Positions 2 to 42,042 of a stretch of DNA of 64,000 nt are shown one piece after another. This DNA is from Desulfatiglandales bacterium. GTDB lineage: Bacteria > Desulfobacterota > DSM-4660 > Desulfatiglandales > Desulfatiglandaceae. Position numbers and translations under genes: made by a program. The notes below the pieces were generated by a model. It saw only the letters and a list, made by a program, of their open reading frames with translations. It made no database searches and was not told the DNA's origin. The first letter of the stretch is position 1. Every line of letters begins with the position of its first letter. Location: NCBI GenBank assembly GCA_963666345.1, contig OY762721.1:416001-480000 (forward strand). The letters are read 5' to 3'.

Positions 2-94
2 ATCCCCTCCCATCTGATTCTCAAGCAAGAGCCCATAGCAGACTGCCACCGCTATGAACGTTTGGTAAGGGAGGGATACCATGCTGCGCAATGA
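2..94 (+). CDS. istA: IS21 transposase IstA, C-terminal fragment (partial)
   Basis: Frame from base 2 reads [30 protein letters not shown]; the EPxADCxRY tail is typical of IstA, and the stop lies just inside the istB start region. Confidence 0.7.
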
Positions 95-812
95 TATCAT
101 GGACCATATGGAAAAACTAAAGTTGCGGGGTATGCAGTCCATTTATGATGAAGTTGTCTCCAATGGACGCAAGACCCATTCAACTCCTGAAAAGGTAATC
201 CTGGAACTGCTCAAGGCTGAAGCTGCCGAAAGATATATAAGGAGTATCCGATATCGTATGGGACAGGCCAGGTTTCCTGTCCTTAAAGATATCGATGGCT
301 TTGATTTTAACGGGGCCTGTGTTGATGAAGCCCAGATTAGGTCTATTTATCAGGGTGATTTTATAGCCGAACATATCAACCTGATTTTTGTAGGTGGCAC
401 CGGTACGGGCAAAACCCATTTAGCCATAACTATAGCGGCCCAGGCCATAAGGAATGGCAGGAAGTGCAAGTTTTATAACCTGGTGGATCTGGCAAATGAG
501 CTTGAGCAGGAAAAAATGATTGGATTGGCCGGCAAAATCACAGCAAGACTACTTCGATTTGATCTTGTGGTCCTCGATGAACTGGGTTATCTGCCTTTTT
601 CCAAAAACGGCAGTCAACTGCTCTTTCATCTTATATCAAAACTCTACGAACAGACATCCATAGTGATTACCACCAACTTGACCTTCGGTGAATGGCCCCA
701 AGTCTTTGGAGATAAAAAGATGACTACGGCCATGCTTGATCGATTGACTCATCATTGTGAAATTATAGAAACAGGTAACGAAAGCTGGAGAATGAAACAC
801 GCAGCTTCATAG
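81..812 (+). CDS. istB: IS21 helper AAA+ ATPase IstB
   Basis: Walker [10 protein letters not shown], Walker [15 protein letters not shown] motif, LDRLTHH. Confidence 0.95.
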
Positions 813-2875: not shown

Positions 2876-3172
2876 CAGATTAACCGTTTTATATCAGAAA
2901 ATCATTAGTTGAGTGGAGGCCGACCCGACCGTCAGGACTCTTTGCCGCTCACCCAATTTTTTACAGGCGGCTGAAGGTCATTGTGATCTTTCAGCCGATT
3001 TATTAAGCGCTCCTTTTGTTGCCTAACTTGACATCTACCTGGATTGTATAGCAATCTATAAAAATAAAGCTTGGAGAACAGACGTCTTACCGAAATTTTC
3101 AGCATTGTGATTTTCATCAGCGTATCATGGAGACACCCGGACCTTGGTCCTTAAGTGAAAGGAGACCATTAA

Positions 3173-3493
3173 ATGATGAAGAAAATCGAGACCTGTGAGA
3201 AAAACGGTTTTAATGAAGAAAGAATGTCAAATTTTCTGGTGCATGACTCCCCCTACATGAAGGTCTTAAGCTTCAATTTCAGGGGTGGACAGGACCTGCC
3301 GATCCACTCGCATGACATAGACGGGCAGTTGTGCCTGGTTGTAATTGAAGGCAAAGGGCAGTTTCTGGGAAAAGACGGCAGCACTAGTTCCGCAAAGCCT
3401 GGAGACGTTCTCATATCAGATATCAGCGAGCCGCACGGCCTGCGAGCGTCCACCGACATGCGCGTGCTGGTCACGATAGCTCCGCCCATATGA
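3173..3493 (+). CDS. Cupin-domain protein
   Basis: GQDLPIHSH...EGKG...PGD...PHG cupin motifs; GGAG RBS upstream. Confidence 0.85.
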   Translation: MMKKIETCEKNGFNEERMSNFLVHDSPYMKVLSFNFRGGQDLPIHSHDIDGQLCLVVIEGKGQFLGKDGSTSSAKPGDVLISDISEPHGLRASTDMRVLVTIAPPI

Positions 3494-3529
3494 TTCTTCT
3501 CATAAGGAACCACGGGAGATGAAACGGAT

Positions 3530-3841
3530 CTAAAAGGTAACCACCTTATCCGCCTCCATTGACAGTTCATACAGGTCGTCCATCCACCCGATAGGACATG
3601 AACTCGATCCCACCAGACCGTGGGATTTCATGCAGACGCCTCAGACGTAAAAGTCACCTTCAAATTGATTCATCTGTCCAAGCACATCGAACTGTTCCGT
3701 GCCCGCGGTCTCGAATTTAACCCCTTTTCCGAGCATAAAGACGCTTGTTTCATCACCCTTTTTTACGGCCACATTGGCAAGTCTCATGGCATTGTAGATC
3801 GTCTCGCCGTCATCCGTTGAAATGATAAAAAGGACGTTCAT
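3530..3841 (-). CDS. DsrE/DsrF-family probable selenoprotein (Sec67, UGVC motif), 103 aa
   Basis: The 66-aa ORF stops at TGA (3641-3643) but continues in frame as GVCMKSHGLVGSSSCPIGWMDDLYELSMEADKVVTF-TAG, a complete DsrE-family C-terminus; SECIS-like hairpin downstream. Confidence 0.85.
3607..3626 (-). promoter_or_regulatory. Bacterial SECIS-like hairpin for the DsrE-family selenoprotein
   Basis: Minus strand AUCCCAC-GGUCUG-GUGGGAU, a perfect 7-bp stem whose loop starts 22 nt after the UGA. Confidence 0.8.
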
Positions 3842-4112
3842 AGGGTTTCCCCTGTTTCAGAAAATTCCTGTCTTTTCAATTTTTAATTTTCTCCATTTCC
3901 TACTGTCCCTGTCGCTCTACCCTCCGGAAGTTCCACCCGACCCTGTACCTGGTTTTTCCCTCCTCTTTCGGCTTTTTTTTCATCCTCGGAGTCATCTTGT
4001 CTATCTTGATCACGATCGAGCCGGGGATACCCTCCTTTTCCCATGAATGACTCCAGCTGGTCCAGGGTCTCTAAAAACAGCACAGGCGAAGATTCAATGT
4101 TTTCCAGACATG

Positions 4113-7100
4113 CTATTTCTGCATGAGCACCATGTTTACCATGGATTTTTGCCCGGTCCCCGTTGCCTTGATCATTATCTGGGACGCGCCCTTTTTAAGC
4201 TGAATCACTGCGAGAGGCCCTTGGGCCATGGACATCCCTGGCTTCCATCCCTTGGCGCTCAAGGCCTTCTTATAGAAATTGATCACATCTTCAGGGCCTG
4301 CCGGTGCCTCCAGATCGGCCGTACTGTTGGGGCCGAATGTCTTCTCCTTTAACACCTTGGCGCCCGGATAAAGCGGAGCCTCACCGTTTAACAGTTCACC
4401 ACCGCCGGTCTCCTGTTCGGACGTCCCTACTGATGCGCCTTTATCACCGCCAGTTTTGGGTAAGGGAGCAACCTTCGGCTGGGCCACAGGCGCAGGTGCG
4501 GCAGGTTCTTTTTCCACAGGGAACTTTGCATTGACCGTAAGAGTCTTGCCCGATTCCAACTGAATATCCCTGATCTCCCGCACTGACCCCTCCTTTCGGT
4601 CTTCGACCTTGACGTAGTAGACACCGGGAAGAAGTCTGTATTCAGCAGGCCTTCCGTCCGCCCGGGCCCAGCCGTCTCCCATGTACTTGTCATCCTTTTG
4701 CTGGTAGAGCTTGACATAAGCCTTGTAAGACACACCGTTTTTGGTGGCCTTGACATTGAGAACTCCCCCTGCAACAAAGCTTGCAAACCTTTCAACCGTC
4801 TTATCCGGCTTGACCTCCACGTTTTCTATAATGACCTCAGGCCGCTGTTTAACGCTTGTGTCCTGGATCAAGATCTTGTAGATACCCGGCAGAAGTTTGT
4901 ATTCTACTGGACTACCATCTTCCTTTGTCCAGCCGTCTCCCATGTATTTATTGTCTTCCTGACGAAAGACCTTCACGTAGGCCTTCATTGGTGCGTTATC
5001 TTTGATCGCCTTGACATGAAGGATGCCTCCAGCACCAAAGGTTGCAACTCGTTCCACCGTCTGGCCCGGCTTGACCTCCACGTTTTCAATAGTGACAACA
5101 GGACGCTCCGTCACGCTTGTATCCTGAACCTTTACCTTGTAGAGGCCGGGCAGGAACTTGAACTCCGCAGGCGTGCCGTCCTCCTTAGCCCAGCCGTCTC
5201 TCATATACTTGTTGTCTTCCTGACGAAAGACCTTTACATAGGCTTTCATAGGCGCATTTTTCTTTACAGCCTTTACGTGAAGGATGCCCCCCTCACCAAA
5301 GGTTGCAACTCGTTCAACAGTCTCACCCGGTTTTACCTCTACATTTTCAATAGTGACAACAGGACGCTCCGTCACGCTTGTATCCTGAACCTTTACCTTG
5401 TAGAGGCCGGGCAGGAACTTGAACTCCGCAGGCGTGCCGTCCTCCTTAGCCCAGCCGTCTCTCATATACTTGTTGTCTTCCTGACGAAAGACCTTTACAT
5501 AGGCTTTCATAGGCGCATTTTTCTTTACAGCCTTTACGTGAAGGATGCCCCCCTCACCAAAGGTTGCAACTCGTTCAACAGTCTCACCCGGTTTTACCTC
5601 TACATTTTCAATAGTGACAACAGGACGCTCCGTCACGCTTGTATCCTGAACCTTTACCTTGTAGAGGCCGGACAGGAACTTGAACTCCGCAGGCGTGCCG
5701 TCCTCCTTAGCCCAGCCGTCTCTCATATACTTGTTGTCTTCCTGACGAAAGACCTTTACATAGGCTTTCATAGGTGCATTTTTCTTTACAGCCTTTACGT
5801 GAAGGATGCCTTCGGTAGCAAAATTGGCCACGATCTCAGTGGTCCGGCCCTCAACCACTTCCACATCCTTTATATTCACAGTGGGTCTCTGAATGACACT
5901 CGTATCCTGGGCACAAATATCGTACATCCCCGGGGGAAGACGGAAGGCAGCTGGTTTCTCAGTGCTTGTCCATCCTTCCGCGACCCGTTTTTCCCCACCC
6001 TTGGTCAGAACCTGCACGTAGGCCTTGATAGGTTTTTCGTCTTTGATACATGTCACCTTTAAGCTTATCGGCGGTTTTTCCGCCGCCTTTTTCACTACAG
6101 CCTTTGCCGCCATCTGAAAGTCTTTGGCCGTCTTTGCCGTGAAATACTCACCGCCACCTGCCTTGGCCATGCACTCAAGCTGTGCCTTTTCTTCTTCTGT
6201 GACGTCAAATCCGATGACATGCATTACGAAATTTATCCCTGCCTCCTTGAGATCCTTGACCAGGCCGCAGGGGTCCGGATCACAGGTCTCTTTGCCGTCC
6301 GAAACAAGGATAATGGTGGTTTCGTCCTCCATCTGTTTGATACGCTCAGCCGTCATCCGAACCGACCGGGATATCGGGGTCTTTCCTTTGGGGCTCAGAC
6401 CCTGAACTGTCTTTATAAGTTTCTTCTTGTCTATTTTGCCCAGAGGAACCAGTTCTTCCACGTCGTTGCAGTCACCCTTGCGCCTGTGCCCGTAGGCCAC
6501 CAGGCCCACGACGGAATCATCCGGCAGGTCTTTGATGAGACCGCTCATGACCTCCTTGGCAATGGCGATCTTGGCCTTTCCTTCCACCCGCCCCCACATG
6601 GAGCCTGAGGCATCCAGGATAAACATTATATTGCCGGTAGAGGCCGTCTCTGGTGCTGCCTTTTGAGCGGCCTGGGCAGGTCTTGCAGGAGTGGGAGTTG
6701 TTGTTTTTTGAGCCTGAACTGTTTTTACATCTCCGGTCTCGCTCTTACCCTGGCACGCAAACTGCTCGATCTTGAAGACAATCCTGCCAGCTTCTCCTGA
6801 AAGAGAAAGGGTCCAGGGTTCCATTTCAGGCGGTATCTCCCAGGAGCGGTTCTGGTTATTTTTCAGCGCAAAACGGGCCGATTCGATGGCGTTCTTGTTC
6901 TTGTCCTGAACTATCAGGTTTGCCTTTGATATTGTTCCCGCTGGATTGTCCCCGGTGGCCGTGATCACGATACGTCTGTCAGGATCAAGGGATCGCCCTC
7001 TGCCTGAGCCCTTCTTTACCTCGATTATCTCGACCTTCGGCTTTCCCGGCCTCTTCTTCTTGGTAACCGTCGTTTGATGCCCAATGGCCTTTACCTCTTT

Positions 7101-8045
7101 GCTCCCTTCTCCGAACTGCTCCATTTTCAGACGGATCTGCCCGGACATACCGCTTACGGAAAGTGTCCAGGGCTCTTTTTCGGCAGGGATATCCCAGGTT
7201 CTGGTCTGTTCGTTTTTCAGGGTAAAAACCGCGCCTTCAATTTTTTTGTTCCTTTTATCCTGGACGGTCAGGCCCGCCTCGGACAGATCGCCTTTTGGGT
7301 TATCGCCTGTGGCAGTGATAACGATACTGCGATCAGGATCAAGGGAAATTCCCATCGCAGAGGTCTTCTTGATGACCAGGGTCTTCACGCTGGGCTTCCC
7401 TGATACGTATTTTTCCCGGGACGAGGTTCCGGAGGTAGGTTGGGGGGGACCTGCCGCCATTTCCAGTTTTGTAAAGCCTGCCGGGATCTTGAAAAGATCT
7501 GATTTTACAGTCCCTTCCTTGATATCTTTAAGCTCCATGACAGCGTTTTTGTTCAGTCCGAAGCGTTCCTCCCGGATGAGATGATTGAGCTTTTTTGCGA
7601 TCCAGACCTTGGAGGCAGGTTTTGATTTTCCCGCCTCAATGTACATCACTGTTTTGCATTCATAACCGTTAACAGTTTCGACCGGGCCGGGCTTTTCCGT
7701 CATCCCCTTGCGGGTCATGGTCCATCCGACCAGAGGATTTGTCATCATGGTCTTTTTGATATCGGCAATTTCAACGTATTTTTTCATCTGGGGATTAAGT
7801 CCCCATGTCACACCGGTATCACGGTTTACAATGCTCGGATAGGGAGGCACGTTCATCGGCCCCTTTATCTTCTGGAGTCGGTACATACGGTCTTTGACAT
7901 AGAGCTTATAGAGATATTCTCCTCCCGGTCCGGTTATAGCCATATCGGCCGTGAACTGGACTGCCTGTGCATGCGTAACTGAAAAGAACATGATTGAAAC
8001 GACAAAAAATGCAACCAGGAAACCGAGAAGTCTTTTCTGTACCAT
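4113..8045 (-). CDS. Large exported multidomain vWA protein (DUF4412-like N-terminus, internal duplication, vWA, tandem ~87-aa beta repeats)
   Basis: Signal peptide; MIDAS DASGS...GKTP...SDG; repeated GILHVKAVKKNAPMKAYVKV units; C-terminal PLYPGA...FY...GW domain; GGAGG RBS. Confidence 0.9.
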   Translation of the reverse strand: MVQKRLLGFLVAFFVVSIMFFSVTHAQAVQFTADMAITGPGGEYLYKLYVKDRMYRLQKIKGPMNVPPYPSIVNRDTGVTWGLNPQMKKYVEIADIKKTMMTNPLVGWTMTRKGMTEKPGPVETVNGYECKTVMYIEAGKSKPASKVWIAKKLNHLIREERFGLNKNAVMELKDIKEGTVKSDLFKIPAGFTKLEMAAGPPQPTSGTSSREKYVSGKPSVKTLVIKKTSAMGISLDPDRSIVITATGDNPKGDLSEAGLTVQDKRNKKIEGAVFTLKNEQTRTWDIPAEKEPWTLSVSGMSGQIRLKMEQFGEGSKEVKAIGHQTTVTKKKRPGKPKVEIIEVKKGSGRGRSLDPDRRIVITATGDNPAGTISKANLIVQDKNKNAIESARFALKNNQNRSWEIPPEMEPWTLSLSGEAGRIVFKIEQFACQGKSETGDVKTVQAQKTTTPTPARPAQAAQKAAPETASTGNIMFILDASGSMWGRVEGKAKIAIAKEVMSGLIKDLPDDSVVGLVAYGHRRKGDCNDVEELVPLGKIDKKKLIKTVQGLSPKGKTPISRSVRMTAERIKQMEDETTIILVSDGKETCDPDPCGLVKDLKEAGINFVMHVIGFDVTEEEKAQLECMAKAGGGEYFTAKTAKDFQMAAKAVVKKAAEKPPISLKVTCIKDEKPIKAYVQVLTKGGEKRVAEGWTSTEKPAAFRLPPGMYDICAQDTSVIQRPTVNIKDVEVVEGRTTEIVANFATEGILHVKAVKKNAPMKAYVKVFRQEDNKYMRDGWAKEDGTPAEFKFLSGLYKVKVQDTSVTERPVVTIENVEVKPGETVERVATFGEGGILHVKAVKKNAPMKAYVKVFRQEDNKYMRDGWAKEDGTPAEFKFLPGLYKVKVQDTSVTERPVVTIENVEVKPGETVERVATFGEGGILHVKAVKKNAPMKAYVKVFRQEDNKYMRDGWAKEDGTPAEFKFLPGLYKVKVQDTSVTERPVVTIENVEVKPGQTVERVATFGAGGILHVKAIKDNAPMKAYVKVFRQEDNKYMGDGWTKEDGSPVEYKLLPGIYKILIQDTSVKQRPEVIIENVEVKPDKTVERFASFVAGGVLNVKATKNGVSYKAYVKLYQQKDDKYMGDGWARADGRPAEYRLLPGVYYVKVEDRKEGSVREIRDIQLESGKTLTVNAKFPVEKEPAAPAPVAQPKVAPLPKTGGDKGASVGTSEQETGGGELLNGEAPLYPGAKVLKEKTFGPNSTADLEAPAGPEDVINFYKKALSAKGWKPGMSMAQGPLAVIQLKKGASQIMIKATGTGQKSMVNMVLMQK
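5033..5810. repeat. Intragenic tandem repeat, 261-bp period, about 3 near-identical copies plus diverged flanking copies
   Basis: AGGATG anchors recur at 5020, 5281, 5542 and 5803; the central units differ at only a few bases. Confidence 0.95.
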
Positions 8046-8639: not shown

Positions 8640-9047
8640 TTACTTATAACAAGCCTTTTTCCACGCCTTTATTCCACCCAAAAGGGCCTTTACATTATTG
8701 TAGCCTTTATTGATATACTCTCCTGCCAGACCGGCAGATGTGGCCTCATTGGCTCACTTGCAATAAAAGATTATCTCGCTGTCCGTTGAAAGCCGTGGAA
8801 GCCTTTCTTCCAGTTCAGAGCGAAATATCGCGCCTTCAAGGATCTTTCCCTCACAAGCCTTGTCATCATATGCACAGACAAAAAGCGCCTCGCCCGAAAC
8901 GACCTTCCGGTGCGCCTCCTCAACTCCTATTCGCTCAACCACAAGACCTTTCTTGGTCTGACTTGTCCAACCTGTTGATGAAGCAATAAACAGGGCAAAC
9001 ATTACGGAAACCACCAACACCACGGTGAAACCATAATTTTTTTTCAT
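8640..9047 (-). CDS. Rhodanese-like probable selenoprotein (C96-K-U98) with N-terminal signal/TM segment, 135 aa
   Basis: The ORF stops at IIFYCK-TGA (8754-8756) but continues in frame as ANEATSAGLAGEYINKGYNNVKALLGGIKAWKKACYK-TAA, which contains the rhodanese LxGGxxxW signature; AGGAGG RBS before ATG 9047. Confidence 0.85.
8722..8738 (-). promoter_or_regulatory. Bacterial SECIS-like hairpin for the rhodanese selenoprotein
   Basis: Minus strand UCUGCC-GGUCU-GGCAGG; loop starts 22 nt after the UGA. Confidence 0.75.
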
Positions 9048-9112
9048 ATATTGACCTCCTTTCCTGATATGACATATCCTGGGTTTATGATTCTCGAAAA
9101 GGAGCCCTGCCT

Positions 9113-10318
9113 TTGTCACCTAAACAAGACACGAACAACTGCCCCGCCCCGGAACCGCTCAGAAATCATCTGGGTGTTGTCATATTTCTGACCCTCCTTT
9201 TTCTGATATCATTTCTTGCCAGATTTATATTTTCTCCCCTCATGCCCTCTATTGAAAAGGACCTGGGCGTCACACACGCGCAGGCAGGCTCGCTTTTCAT
9301 GGTCCTTTCGATCGGGTTCCTGACAGCTCAGCTGAGCTCCGGTTTTCTTACATCCCGGATACTTCACAGGGGCTCAATAATTACATCAGCCATTGCCATG
9401 GGGTTTTTCCTGATTCTCTTTTCTTTCCTCAGCTCCCTGAACCAGATTCGCCTGGTCATGGTGCTGCTCGGCATGGCCGCCGGGCTTCATCTTCCTTCCG
9501 CGGTAGCCACGATAACGGCCATGATAGATCGTCAGGACTGGGGCAAGGCCCTCGGGGTTCATCAAACCGCCCCAAGCATTGCCCTGGTAATGGGACCGCT
9601 TCTGGTTGTGGCACTGCCGCTTTCCTGGAGGACACTCCTTCTGCTGATAGGGATTTTATCCATTGCAGGAGGGATATCCTTTTTTATCTTTAACGGATCA
9701 GGAAGATTCCCCGGCCAGCAGCCCAGGCCTGCCAACGTGAAAGCGCTCCTTTCCTTGAAATCGTTCTGGATAATGGTCGCCCTGTTTTCCATGGGTATCG
9801 CTTCAAGTGCAGGGCTTTACACAATGATCCCGCTGTATCTTGCCTCGGAAAAGGGTTTTGATCCTGACACGGCCAATTTTCTTCTCGGTCTGTCCAGGGT
9901 TTCAGGTCTTTTCATAGTCATTGTTGCGGGATGGGTTGTCGACAGAATCGGTGAAAAAAAGACATTGTCAGGGGTCCTTTTTTTCTCCGGCCTGGGAACC
10001 ATCCTCCTTGGCCTTGCTTCCTCAAAATGGATCGTTCCGGCGCTTTTTCTTCAGCCTCTTATTGCATCCGGTTTTTTCCCTCCCGGATTCGCGGCCCTTT
10101 CACGGATAGTCTCACCAAGTTTCAGAAGTCTTGCTACTTCGCTTGTAGTTTCGATCGGCTTTCTTTTTGGAGGTGGTATGGTGCCTATGTTCCTTGGGTT
10201 GATGGGTGAAAAGGGGAACTTCGGTCTCGGGATTGTGCTACTGGGAGCTTTTACCGGCTTGATCCCGGTACTTTCCCTTTTTCTCAGGTTAAAACAGATG
10301 GAGGAACCCGGCTGCTGA
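9113..10318 (+). CDS. MFS transporter
   Basis: About 12 hydrophobic segments, motif A-like GWVVDRIGEK; AGGAG RBS before TTG. Confidence 0.9.
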   Translation: MSPKQDTNNCPAPEPLRNHLGVVIFLTLLFLISFLARFIFSPLMPSIEKDLGVTHAQAGSLFMVLSIGFLTAQLSSGFLTSRILHRGSIITSAIAMGFFLILFSFLSSLNQIRLVMVLLGMAAGLHLPSAVATITAMIDRQDWGKALGVHQTAPSIALVMGPLLVVALPLSWRTLLLLIGILSIAGGISFFIFNGSGRFPGQQPRPANVKALLSLKSFWIMVALFSMGIASSAGLYTMIPLYLASEKGFDPDTANFLLGLSRVSGLFIVIVAGWVVDRIGEKKTLSGVLFFSGLGTILLGLASSKWIVPALFLQPLIASGFFPPGFAALSRIVSPSFRSLATSLVVSIGFLFGGGMVPMFLGLMGEKGNFGLGIVLLGAFTGLIPVLSLFLRLKQMEEPGC

Positions 10319-40422: not shown

Positions 40423-42042
40423 CTACCTGACAAGCTCGGCCGCAACCGAATCCATGTCTCTACTTCGCTTTTTAACTGCAAGACCCAGGTCAATTGATTT
40501 GAGTACCGGCTCGATTTCGGCCAGTTCCTTATCAAAACCTCGGGCAATCCTGCTACCGTTAATATAGGCCTTTTCAGCGACATCACCAGCGAAAATTCTT
40601 GCAACGGCATTCATGTATTCCGAAGTACTTCCCTGGCTTTCATCATAATGGGCCGCCTTTTTACACATTGCGCCCCCTACCTCGCACCAGGTCATGATAT
40701 CCGCAAGAAGGAACATAAGATGCTGCGATTTTGTAAGCTTATTTTTTCTTGCCTCCAGGATCATCCGGTTGAGAGCCCTGACAGATTTAGCCAAGACGGG
40801 CCCACCGCATTCATCAGGAAGCTCATCAAGACCCTTTGCCATCTCCTCGTAATAGGCACCTTTTGAGCGAACCGTGTCTCTCATTCGGAACATGGAGATT
40901 ATATTCTGCTGAATCTCGCTTGTCCCCTCATATATGGTAAGGATCTTGACATCTCTTTTGATCTTTTCCACCTCATACTCACGCGTATATCCATATCCCC
41001 CAAAGGCCTGAATACCGTCATTGGCAGCGGCATCCCCCGCCTCGGTGGCGAAATACTTTGCGATTGATCCCTCGACCTGCAGATCATCATCAACCGTGTC
41101 AAGACGCTTAGCTACCATCTCGATATACGCACGCGCCGCCGCAAGGCTGACCGCATGAGGAACCAGAAGCTTATGCGTGTACCCCTGTTTTTCACATAGA
41201 AGCGTTCCGAACTGGGTCCTTTCCTTTGAATATTTAACGGCCCTCTCCAGAGCCGCCACTCCTCCTCCCAGACCGAAGGTTGCGACCATCAATCTTGTAT
41301 AGCCGAACACCTTGTTGGCCTGTTTCAGACCCTGCCCTTCTATGCCTCCAACCAGATTCTCAGCCGGAACATAGAGATCCTCAAGCGTCAGTGCGCAGGT
41401 GTCCGAGGCCCTTATTCCATGCTTATCCTCATGCCTTTCAGGCACAAGCCCTTCAGATCCGCCTTCGACTATAAAAAAGGAGGGGCCCGACGGGGTATCG
41501 GCAAGTATTGTATAAAGATCCGCTACTCCGCCGTTTGTGATAAACTGTTTCCTTCCGTTTATCTTATAACCGGTTACTGAACCGTCATCACCCAGCACCC
41601 TGTCCGCCTTTGTCTTCAGGGACTGCACATTTGAACCCGCATCCGGTTCGGTAACCGCATAGGCCACGACAAGGCCCTCTCCTGCTATTTTACCGATATA
41701 TTTCTCTTTTTGGACATCCGTGGCACCCACCCTTATCGGATCCATACCTAGGCATATTGCGAGAAAAGAGGTGGCAACCGCAAGATCGATCTTTGCCATT
41801 TCCTCACTTACTATAGCGATTTCAGCAGCTCCCGCACCCAGGCCGCCATATTCTTCAGGAATAAATATCAGGTGAAGTGCAATCTCCGGCCCGAGCATAA
41901 ATCTTATCAGTTCATGGGGAAATACCCCTTTTGAGTCCATGTCCAGCTTTGTCTCAAGTGGGATTCTTTCCTTTTCCAGCTTTTTCAATGTGTCAAGGAC
42001 CATTGAAAAGACTTCCTGATCCATTTTTCCAGTTTGAACCAT
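40423..42042 (-). CDS. Acyl-CoA dehydrogenase with C-terminal extension
   Basis: TEPDAGS, INGRKQFITNG, GGYGY, IYEGTSEIQ; AAGGAGG RBS before ATG 42042. Confidence 0.93.
   Translation of the reverse strand: MVQTGKMDQEVFSMVLDTLKKLEKERIPLETKLDMDSKGVFPHELIRFMLGPEIALHLIFIPEEYGGLGAGAAEIAIVSEEMAKIDLAVATSFLAICLGMDPIRVGATDVQKEKYIGKIAGEGLVVAYAVTEPDAGSNVQSLKTKADRVLGDDGSVTGYKINGRKQFITNGGVADLYTILADTPSGPSFFIVEGGSEGLVPERHEDKHGIRASDTCALTLEDLYVPAENLVGGIEGQGLKQANKVFGYTRLMVATFGLGGGVAALERAVKYSKERTQFGTLLCEKQGYTHKLLVPHAVSLAAARAYIEMVAKRLDTVDDDLQVEGSIAKYFATEAGDAAANDGIQAFGGYGYTREYEVEKIKRDVKILTIYEGTSEIQQNIISMFRMRDTVRSKGAYYEEMAKGLDELPDECGGPVLAKSVRALNRMILEARKNKLTKSQHLMFLLADIMTWCEVGGAMCKKAAHYDESQGSTSEYMNAVARIFAGDVAEKAYINGSRIARGFDKELAEIEPVLKSIDLGLAVKKRSRDMDSVAAELVR

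Follow-up and report, generated by a model that had tools for sequence, protein, structure and literature searches.

We describe a gene in a 64,000-nucleotide stretch of Desulfatiglandales bacterium DNA (contig OY762721.1, positions 416,001 to 480,000; hereafter the window) whose product is very probably a selenoprotein of 103 residues with the DsrE/YchN fold. The gene lies on the minus strand at 3841..3530 and carries an in-frame UGA at codon 67, which, judging from comparison with its relatives, is almost certainly read as selenocysteine (Sec). We propose that this decoding is directed by a selenocysteine insertion sequence (SECIS) hairpin just behind the UGA and that the product takes part in selenium-assisted sulfur relay or thiol-redox chemistry.

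Translated with TGA as Sec, the reading frame consists of an ATG and 65 further codons, the TGA, another 36 codons, and a TAG stop at 3532..3530. The product, M...EGDFYV-U-GVCMKSHGLVGSSSCPIGWMDDLYELSMEADKVVTF followed by the stop, has 103 residues and a single TGA (3641..3643), whose residue, Sec67, is the first of a U-G-V-C motif. Translation table 11 lists just a 66-residue open reading frame (ORF) at this locus, 3641..3841. A reading of the window made from its letters alone (hereafter the sequence-only reading) had pointed out that the frame of this short ORF runs on to a TAG to give 103 residues, and the continuation is present as described. The same reading had proposed that the UGA is Sec67 of the U-G-V-C motif, and the sequence-level tests of that proposal set out below (the match to PF02635, the Cys column, the bacterial SECIS, and a TGA in 80 of 80 loci) have come out in its favor.

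Conservation of UGA-67 and the RNA hairpin behind it

Related loci were collected from a scan of one genome per species, which gave 225 confirmed relatives, and the best 80 were kept for comparison. Of the two patterns used in the search, one had been back-translated with either W or C in the place of codon 67 and was therefore unable to select for TGA. Codon 67 is nonetheless TGA in all 80 of these best loci, and the motif U67-G-V-C70 is the same in every one. The 36 codons on the 3' side of the TGA are likewise conserved in frame and as protein in 80 of 80 loci, the ATG start falls at the same codon in 79 of the 80 orthologues, and the true stop varies among them (TAA in 39, TGA in 27, TAG in 14). 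Because every one of the 80 loci carries it, the TGA cannot be a sequencing error, an alternative that the sequence-only reading had itself raised. One of the orthologues (L059, on a 1,687-bp contig) comes from a metagenome-assembled genome (MAG) labelled Candidatus Saccharibacteria; it is probably a binning stray, since nearly all the other orthologues are from sulfate-reducer lineages.

The residue that stands at this position in more distant proteins was read from a set of 58 full-length homologues of 31-47% identity. Column 67 is Cys in 53 of them, Ser in 4, Gly in 1, and Trp in none, and column 70 is Cys in 56. The UGA thus aligns with a conserved Cys, which corresponds to the leading Cys of CKTC in Escherichia coli YchN, and the ACGTC that the sequence-only reading had given for homologues at this point is the majority consensus of the distant set. 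The codon for Cys70 (3632..3634, minus strand), which we propose to be the resolving Cys of the UxxC motif, is retained throughout the close set (80 distinct sequences), as TGC in 54 and TGT in 26. A third conserved Cys, Cys82 (codon 3596..3598, minus strand), belongs to a Cys-Pro motif; it is invariant in the close set and kept in 45 of the 58 distant homologues.

Behind the UGA, the RNA contains the perfect hairpin that had been noticed from the sequence, AUCCCAC-GGUCUG-GUGGGAU at 3626..3607 on the minus strand, with its loop at 3619..3614. Its predicted energy is -10.9 kcal/mol (z -2.71), and none of 200 shuffled sequences folds as well. In the window copy, a lower stem of 7 bp with a 4-nt 3' bulge lengthens it to a 38-nt element (3633..3596) of -17.4 kcal/mol (z -3.89; 0 of 200 shuffles), and this lower stem is not conserved in that form across the 81 aligned sequences. 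The published model of the bacterial SECIS (bSECIS), as given in a 2026 review (PMC13188914), has an upper stem of 4-16 bp capped by a loop of 3-9 nt, a G at loop position 1 or 2 that is usually followed by G or U, a distance of 16-37 nt from the UGA to the apical loop, and a minimum free energy of -7.5 kcal/mol or lower. The hairpin agrees with all four of these constraints, as a 3'-adjacent SECIS of the kind that the sequence-only reading had in mind should: a 6-nt loop closes a 7-bp upper stem, the loop reads GGUCUG, it starts 21 nt after the UGA, and the energy of the upper hairpin alone lies below the limit. The loop is invariant or nearly so in the 81 sequences, and the G, G, U at its first three positions (alignment columns 34-36) is found in every one.

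The synonymous sites give a separate view of the same element. Over 80 distinct sequences, mean normalised synonymous entropy is 0.10 at codons 72-78 vs 0.82 over the other 87 degenerate codons; that is, synonymous sites are near saturation over most of the gene and nearly frozen over the codons that form the hairpin. At codons 73, 74, 75, and 77, the majority residue is written with a sole codon (TCC, CAC, GGT, and GAG, respectively), and the 7-codon windows of lowest entropy start at codons 71-74. This pattern shows selection that acts on the RNA itself, and it does so exactly over the hairpin. Codon 77 (3613..3611; alignment column 41) is dimorphic for Val and Glu, with GTG in 37, GAG in 42, and GCG in 1 of the 80 sequences, and it toggles a stem position between an A-U pair and an A.A mismatch, so that protein and RNA structure share the site.

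If the hairpin functions as the bacterial SelB/SECIS mechanism summarized in PMC13188914 would have it, then SelB-GTP loaded with Sec-tRNA(Sec) would bind the apical part of the GGUCUG hairpin, 21 nt downstream of the UGA, and Sec would be delivered as the UGA enters the A site. Release factor 2 would be outcompeted at UGA-67 only, and other UGAs in the genome would still terminate translation.

Fold, proposed chemistry, and known relatives

The sequence-only reading had placed the protein in the DsrE family and suggested an alignment to PF02635. The Pfam DsrE model matches the read-through protein over its full length, with residues 1-103 aligned to all 116 positions of the model, an E value of 7.9e-10, and 39.4 bits against a gathering cut-off of 22.7. 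The read-through product also models as a DsrE/YchN fold: an AlphaFold2 prediction on 79 sequences has a mean predicted local distance difference test score of 94.8 and a predicted template modeling (TM) score of 0.87, and a Foldseek search of the PDB with this model returned top matches that are all of the DsrE family, namely 1jx7, 3pnx (Swol_2425), 2hy5_A, 3mc3, and 2d1p. YchN (1jx7) was matched at E 3.1e-6, 3mc3 at TM 0.86, 2hy5_A at TM 0.82, and TusD (2d1p_A) at TM 0.74, with a probability of 1.00 for both 2hy5_A and 2d1p_A. Searching PDB sequences with the protein alone gave no match at E <= 1; the family sequence profile reaches YchN (1jx7) at E 1.4e-8 and aligns U/C-G-x-C with the C-K-T-C of YchN and the DKV-x-TF tail with its DKVLTF. 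The DKVVTF tail had been called typical of DsrE/YchN-type proteins, and this is borne out by the consensus tail SDKVxTF and by YchN, which ends ADKVLTF.

In the predicted structure, residue 67 is the end of a strand (63-67) and is followed directly by the start of a helix (68-73). Sec67-Gly-Val-Cys70 would therefore sit where the strand meets the helix N-terminus, together with Cys82-Pro, in the geometry of a redox or transfer CxxC. Studied DsrE-family proteins carry sulfur as a persulfide (Haft preprint 2022), and it is from this and the CxxC-like geometry that we propose persulfide or disulfide chemistry at Sec67. As the attacking nucleophile, Sec67 would either take up sulfane sulfur or attack the disulfide or persulfide of a partner protein, and an intramolecular selenenylsulfide would form as Cys70 resolves the adduct. 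The product, in this proposal, would be a selenium-assisted sulfur-relay or thiol-redox protein.

Selenoproteins of this kind have been reported before. A "DsrE-like protein, Pfam02635, UXXC" was described as a new selenoprotein family with a predicted SECIS from the Sargasso Sea (Zhang, Fomenko & Gladyshev 2005; PMC1088965), a DsrE-like selenoprotein was then reported in Desulfovibrio vulgaris (Zhang et al. 2006; PMC1794560) and in the delta symbionts of Olavius (2007; PMC1976440), and the table of the 2026 review lists the DsrE-like family with PF02635, a UxxC motif, and one Sec (PMC13188914); WP_014524487.1 is its published representative. The BSepDB paper makes no mention of DsrE. The window gene has the same Pfam domain, a single Sec in UxxC, and a SECIS directly after the UGA, and it likewise occurs in deltaproteobacterial sulfate reducers; we found nothing that sets it apart from the family, which it matches by domain, motif, and lineage. 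Since it shows every defining feature of the family that was tested, we regard its kind as already known.

Among structurally characterized relatives, E. coli YchN (a DsrE-family protein of uncharacterised function) is the best match by both profile and structure, with its CKTC in the same place and DKVLTF at its C-terminus. YchN, however, has Cys in place of Sec and no Cys-Pro motif in line with Cys82, and identity in the structural alignment is only 19%. DsrE of DsrEFH (2hy5) and TusD of TusBCD (2d1p) share the fold and have a conserved Cys in the same region after the third strand, but each of them works in a heterohexamer whose paralogous subunits come from adjacent genes, and in place of a U/CxxC they have one active Cys. 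No other DsrE-family ORF was found by Pfam among 62 window ORFs, and no DsrE-family paralogue was found among the 13 neighbor-gene cluster representatives scanned from related loci. The window protein falls outside YedF (TIGR03527) as that family is defined. The match to its DsrE-like C-terminal part, which is the sole match in NCBIfam release 20, has an E value of 2.5e-4 and 21 bits against a cut-off of 110 and covers only model positions 121-192 of 194, with no TusA domain. The same release contains no model that names a DsrE-like selenoprotein. SaoD, of the CD2369 family and the SAO system, is likewise a DsrE-family protein with an invariant CxxC and a further invariant Cys and is encoded among selenoprotein genes, but it belongs to a different system and lineage, and its homologues are "never detected as selenoproteins" (Haft preprint 2022).

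Neighboring selenoprotein genes and alternative readings

When the neighborhoods of the related loci were clustered from table-11 ORFs of at least 70 residues, the only frequent neighbor was an ArsR-type regulator, found in 20 of 81 loci (window included), and the others were scattered genes. The 500-900 bp between this regulator and the DsrE-like gene seemed empty because the genes there are split by TGA. The gaps upstream of the DsrE-like genes were re-read with TGA as Sec, and they contain products that score well above the NCBIfam cut-offs for TsoA (LULAxC, NF045695; 210-219 bits vs 170), TsoX (HSGNPxU, NF045809; 112-126 bits vs 52), and, at one locus, TsoC (NF045708; 130 bits vs 45). The regulator itself matches "ArsR/SmtB-type metalloregulator TsoR" (NF045707) at 165.6 and 152.6 bits against a cut-off of 115 in the two loci examined in detail, and TsoY lies farther upstream in one locus (L025; 515 bits vs 250). 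The Tso ("three selenoprotein operon") neighborhood was described in the 2026 review, which cites Haft & Tolstoy 2025 (PMC13188914); NCBIfam models name TsoR, TsoA, TsoB, TsoC, TsoX, and TsoY but not the DsrE-like gene.

By tblastn, a Tso gene lies directly upstream on the same strand in 29 of the 80 related loci (TsoA in 22, TsoX in 17, and TsoC in 1), and the DsrE-like gene is the last of a TsoR-TsoA-TsoX (or TsoC) cluster in these 29. Examples are the clusters at 244-1712 of L038, 3270-6309 of L025, 4720-6309 of L037, and 4685-6309 of L008. In many of the 29, the gap from TsoX or TsoA to the DsrE-like gene is only a few to about 60 bp. These clusters suggest that the DsrE-like protein works in a relay of selenol and thiol proteins that an ArsR/SmtB-type regulator controls; the copy in the window stands apart from any such cluster.

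The window was also scanned for other TGA-interrupted genes, and Pfam was run on five read-through products. One of them, a rhodanese gene at 8643-9119 on the minus strand, is likely a second selenoprotein on the strength of its sequence features. The table-11 ORF (8754..9119, minus strand) stops at a TGA (8756..8754) after ...IIFYCK; with read-through, the protein is 37 residues longer, and the TGA, at codon 122, falls inside the Pfam Rhodanese match (residues 101-156). The motif around this codon is FYCK-U-ANE, the protein has a probable signal peptide, and the form in the database starts at M25 (9047). In NCBIfam it comes closest to NF041203, "rhodanese-related (seleno)protein" (LYCAU), with a score of 55 bits that is under the cut-off of 115. 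A hairpin, CUGCC-GGUCU-GGCAG, lies at 8737..8723, and here too the distance from the TGA to the start of the loop is 21 nt. Of six homologues, four end at the TGA codon and two read W there (P0272 and P0273). The other four read-throughs, of Nfu_N (52986), flavin reductase (11792), 3HCDH (51470), and MFS (9113) genes, gained no domain past the TGA and were set aside. The octamer CGGTCTGG occurs three times in the window vs 1.33 expected, a number that 16 of 100 shuffles reach and that is not significant; two of the sites are the two SECIS loops, and the third (41268-41275) is inside an uninterrupted ORF for an acyl-CoA dehydrogenase.

How UGA-67 is read can be weighed against two other accounts, and here the state of the public records matters. 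Standard gene callers do truncate the gene, as the sequence-only reading had predicted: of the 120 closest homologues in the database, 92 stop precisely at residue 66. Another 22 carry W at position 67, and one more (P0016) also reads W, in a variant context; three have C there (P0014, P0024, and P0039), which are either true Cys forms or records in which U was stored as C, one has S, and one lacks the region. Were the UGA a true stop, only the 66-residue N-terminal fragment would be made, and what follows would be the decaying remnant of a pseudogene. The 66-residue table-11 ORF, the 92 records that end with it, and the fact that TGA is an ordinary stop in this genome all fit that account. 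A remnant, however, would gather stops and frameshifts, whereas the 36 downstream codons stay in frame and are conserved as protein in all 80 loci while synonymous sites vary freely outside the hairpin, and the 66-residue piece would lack not only the conserved CxxC and the Cys-Pro motif but also the fold's final helix and strand. We give termination at UGA-67 almost no credence. The codon might otherwise be decoded as Trp or Cys, by a reassigned code, a suppressor tRNA, or near-cognate read-through, as the 23 records predicted with W67, that is, with a TGA=Trp table, and the three close homologues with C could be taken to indicate. The W67 homologues (within P0002-P0025) are full length and all lie on short contigs of 575-2,916 bp, where the gene caller apparently chose a TGA=Trp table, as it did for the rhodanese homologues P0272 and P0273, and the W67 calls look like artefacts of that choice. 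None of the 58 distant homologues has W at this position, where they have Cys instead, and a frozen hairpin at SECIS distance would have no role under a simple reassignment. TGA is moreover the stop of 24 of 61 long ORFs in the window, including those of rpsT, leuS, and ribH, and the housekeeping genes among them have Pfam matches complete to the end; because TGA terminates these genes, this is not a TGA=Trp organism. Decoding as Trp or Cys is therefore very improbable.

A third account accepts Sec but assigns it another task: the protein would handle selenium or a metal or metalloid (selenide, or arsenic or mercury species) under the control of TsoR, instead of relaying sulfur. The regulator upstream in related loci does match TsoR above its cut-off. 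The YedF DsrE-like domain, to which the protein has its only NCBIfam match, has a CGxC and has been linked to selenium use, and Sec may act as a metal ligand in some families (PMC13188914). On the other hand, the YedF match falls well short of its cut-off, and the protein has no SirA/TusA domain, the defining part of YedF; the window copy is not flanked by any gene for metal transport or resistance, and DsrE-family proteins that have been characterized move sulfur (Haft preprint 2022). We consider a selenium- or metal-handling role rather unlikely.

Several results nevertheless speak against a selenoprotein with a sulfur-relay or thiol-redox role. The 81-nt context of the hairpin folds unremarkably (z -0.80; 39 of 200 shuffles fold as well), and because of this, fold energy alone is weak support and most of the case is borne by conservation. 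RNAalifold finds little covariation, with a double change in 1 of 19 pairs, because the hairpin is almost invariant, and we have relied on synonymous-site constraint in its place. At that pair, 28:45, 73 sequences have U-A and 4 have G-C, and the pairing is lost in a further 4; in the 42 of 80 sequences with GAG at codon 77, the A-U pair of the window's stem is replaced by an A.A mismatch. No selA, selB, or selD was found by Pfam among 62 ORFs of the 64-kb window, nor was a tRNA-Sec, since ARAGORN reported 0 tRNAs and Rfam at gathering thresholds 0 matches, results that have no bearing on the SECIS; tblastn likewise found no match to TsoA, TsoX, or TsoC anywhere in the window. As to the chemistry, the family profile aligns only weakly with TusD (2d1p_A, E 0.023), ends at its catalytic Cys, and is one column off there, and DsrE (2hy5_A) is reached at E 0.9. 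Since the alignment is weak, stops at this point, and is displaced by one, the equivalence of Sec67 to the sulfur-relay Cys of TusD/DsrE, which we take to be Cys78, is not established. According to the 2026 review, the functions of the DsrE-like selenoprotein family "remain largely uncharacterized" (PMC13188914).

That the organism makes selenoproteins at all is nonetheless to be expected from its lineage and from the second TGA-containing gene, and the Sec machinery is presumably encoded elsewhere in its genome. The use of Sec in this lineage has ample documentation. Deltaproteobacteria had the largest number of selenoprotein families in a 2006 survey (PMC1794560), and 39 known selenoproteins are reported for Desulfosarcina widdelii, which carries an orthologue of the window gene (L003), as does the cultured D. 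variabilis (L002).

A further proposal arises from the Tso clusters. The DsrE-like selenoprotein might be an unrecognised integral member of the Tso system that TsoR controls and its terminal sulfur or selenium acceptor. We offer this as a speculation that is more likely wrong than right by some way. Were it true, the detached copy in the window, with the rhodanese 5 kb away, would show that the module can split, and the rhodanese selenoprotein would feed the DsrE-like selenoprotein in a selenium-based persulfide relay.

Surroundings of the gene and its public annotation

The window is otherwise ordinary chromosome, with leuS, rib genes, glyA, fab genes, gltX, and mla genes, and its LeuS is 76-78% identical to proteins with names from Desulfobacteraceae, Desulfobacterales, and Thermodesulfobacteriota MAGs. 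A Shine-Dalgarno-like AGGGGA at 3848..3853 on the minus strand, 6 nt 5' of the ATG at 3841, may serve as the ribosome-binding site. The promoter scan of 3100-4300 found no sigma-70-like promoter, and the three terminator-like hits are all on the plus strand, none of them adjoining the 3' end of the gene.

Directly upstream on the same strand, after a gap of 270 bp, lies a gene for a 1,310-residue protein with von Willebrand A, DUF4412, and DUF4406 domains (4113-8045, minus strand), a neighbor that no related locus shares. Just past the 3' end of the selenoprotein gene, two ORFs overlap each other. The one at 3173-3493 (plus strand) has a borderline match to Cupin_2 (27.1 bits vs a cut-off of 27.2); the one at 3253-3570 (minus strand) has no family match and overlaps the last 41 bases of the selenoprotein gene. 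Probably the cupin alone is real. At the start of the window, an IS21-family insertion sequence encodes an IstB-like ATPase (81-812, plus strand; PF01695, E 6e-74) at a distance of 2.7 kb from the gene, and the partner transposase of this element would fall outside the window.

For biology, the gain is a small one, a further member of a selenoprotein family first reported two decades ago. For annotation, the gene serves as a useful reminder, since most public records of such genes are still cut to 66 residues and others read Trp under the wrong code; even the RefSeq-type record of a "DsrE family protein" from Desulfosarcina variabilis (P0038) still has 66 residues, and NCBIfam has no model that could rescue a truncated DsrE-like gene. 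The near-invariant SECIS and the repeated placement of the gene behind Tso genes offer handles for a first functional study of the family.

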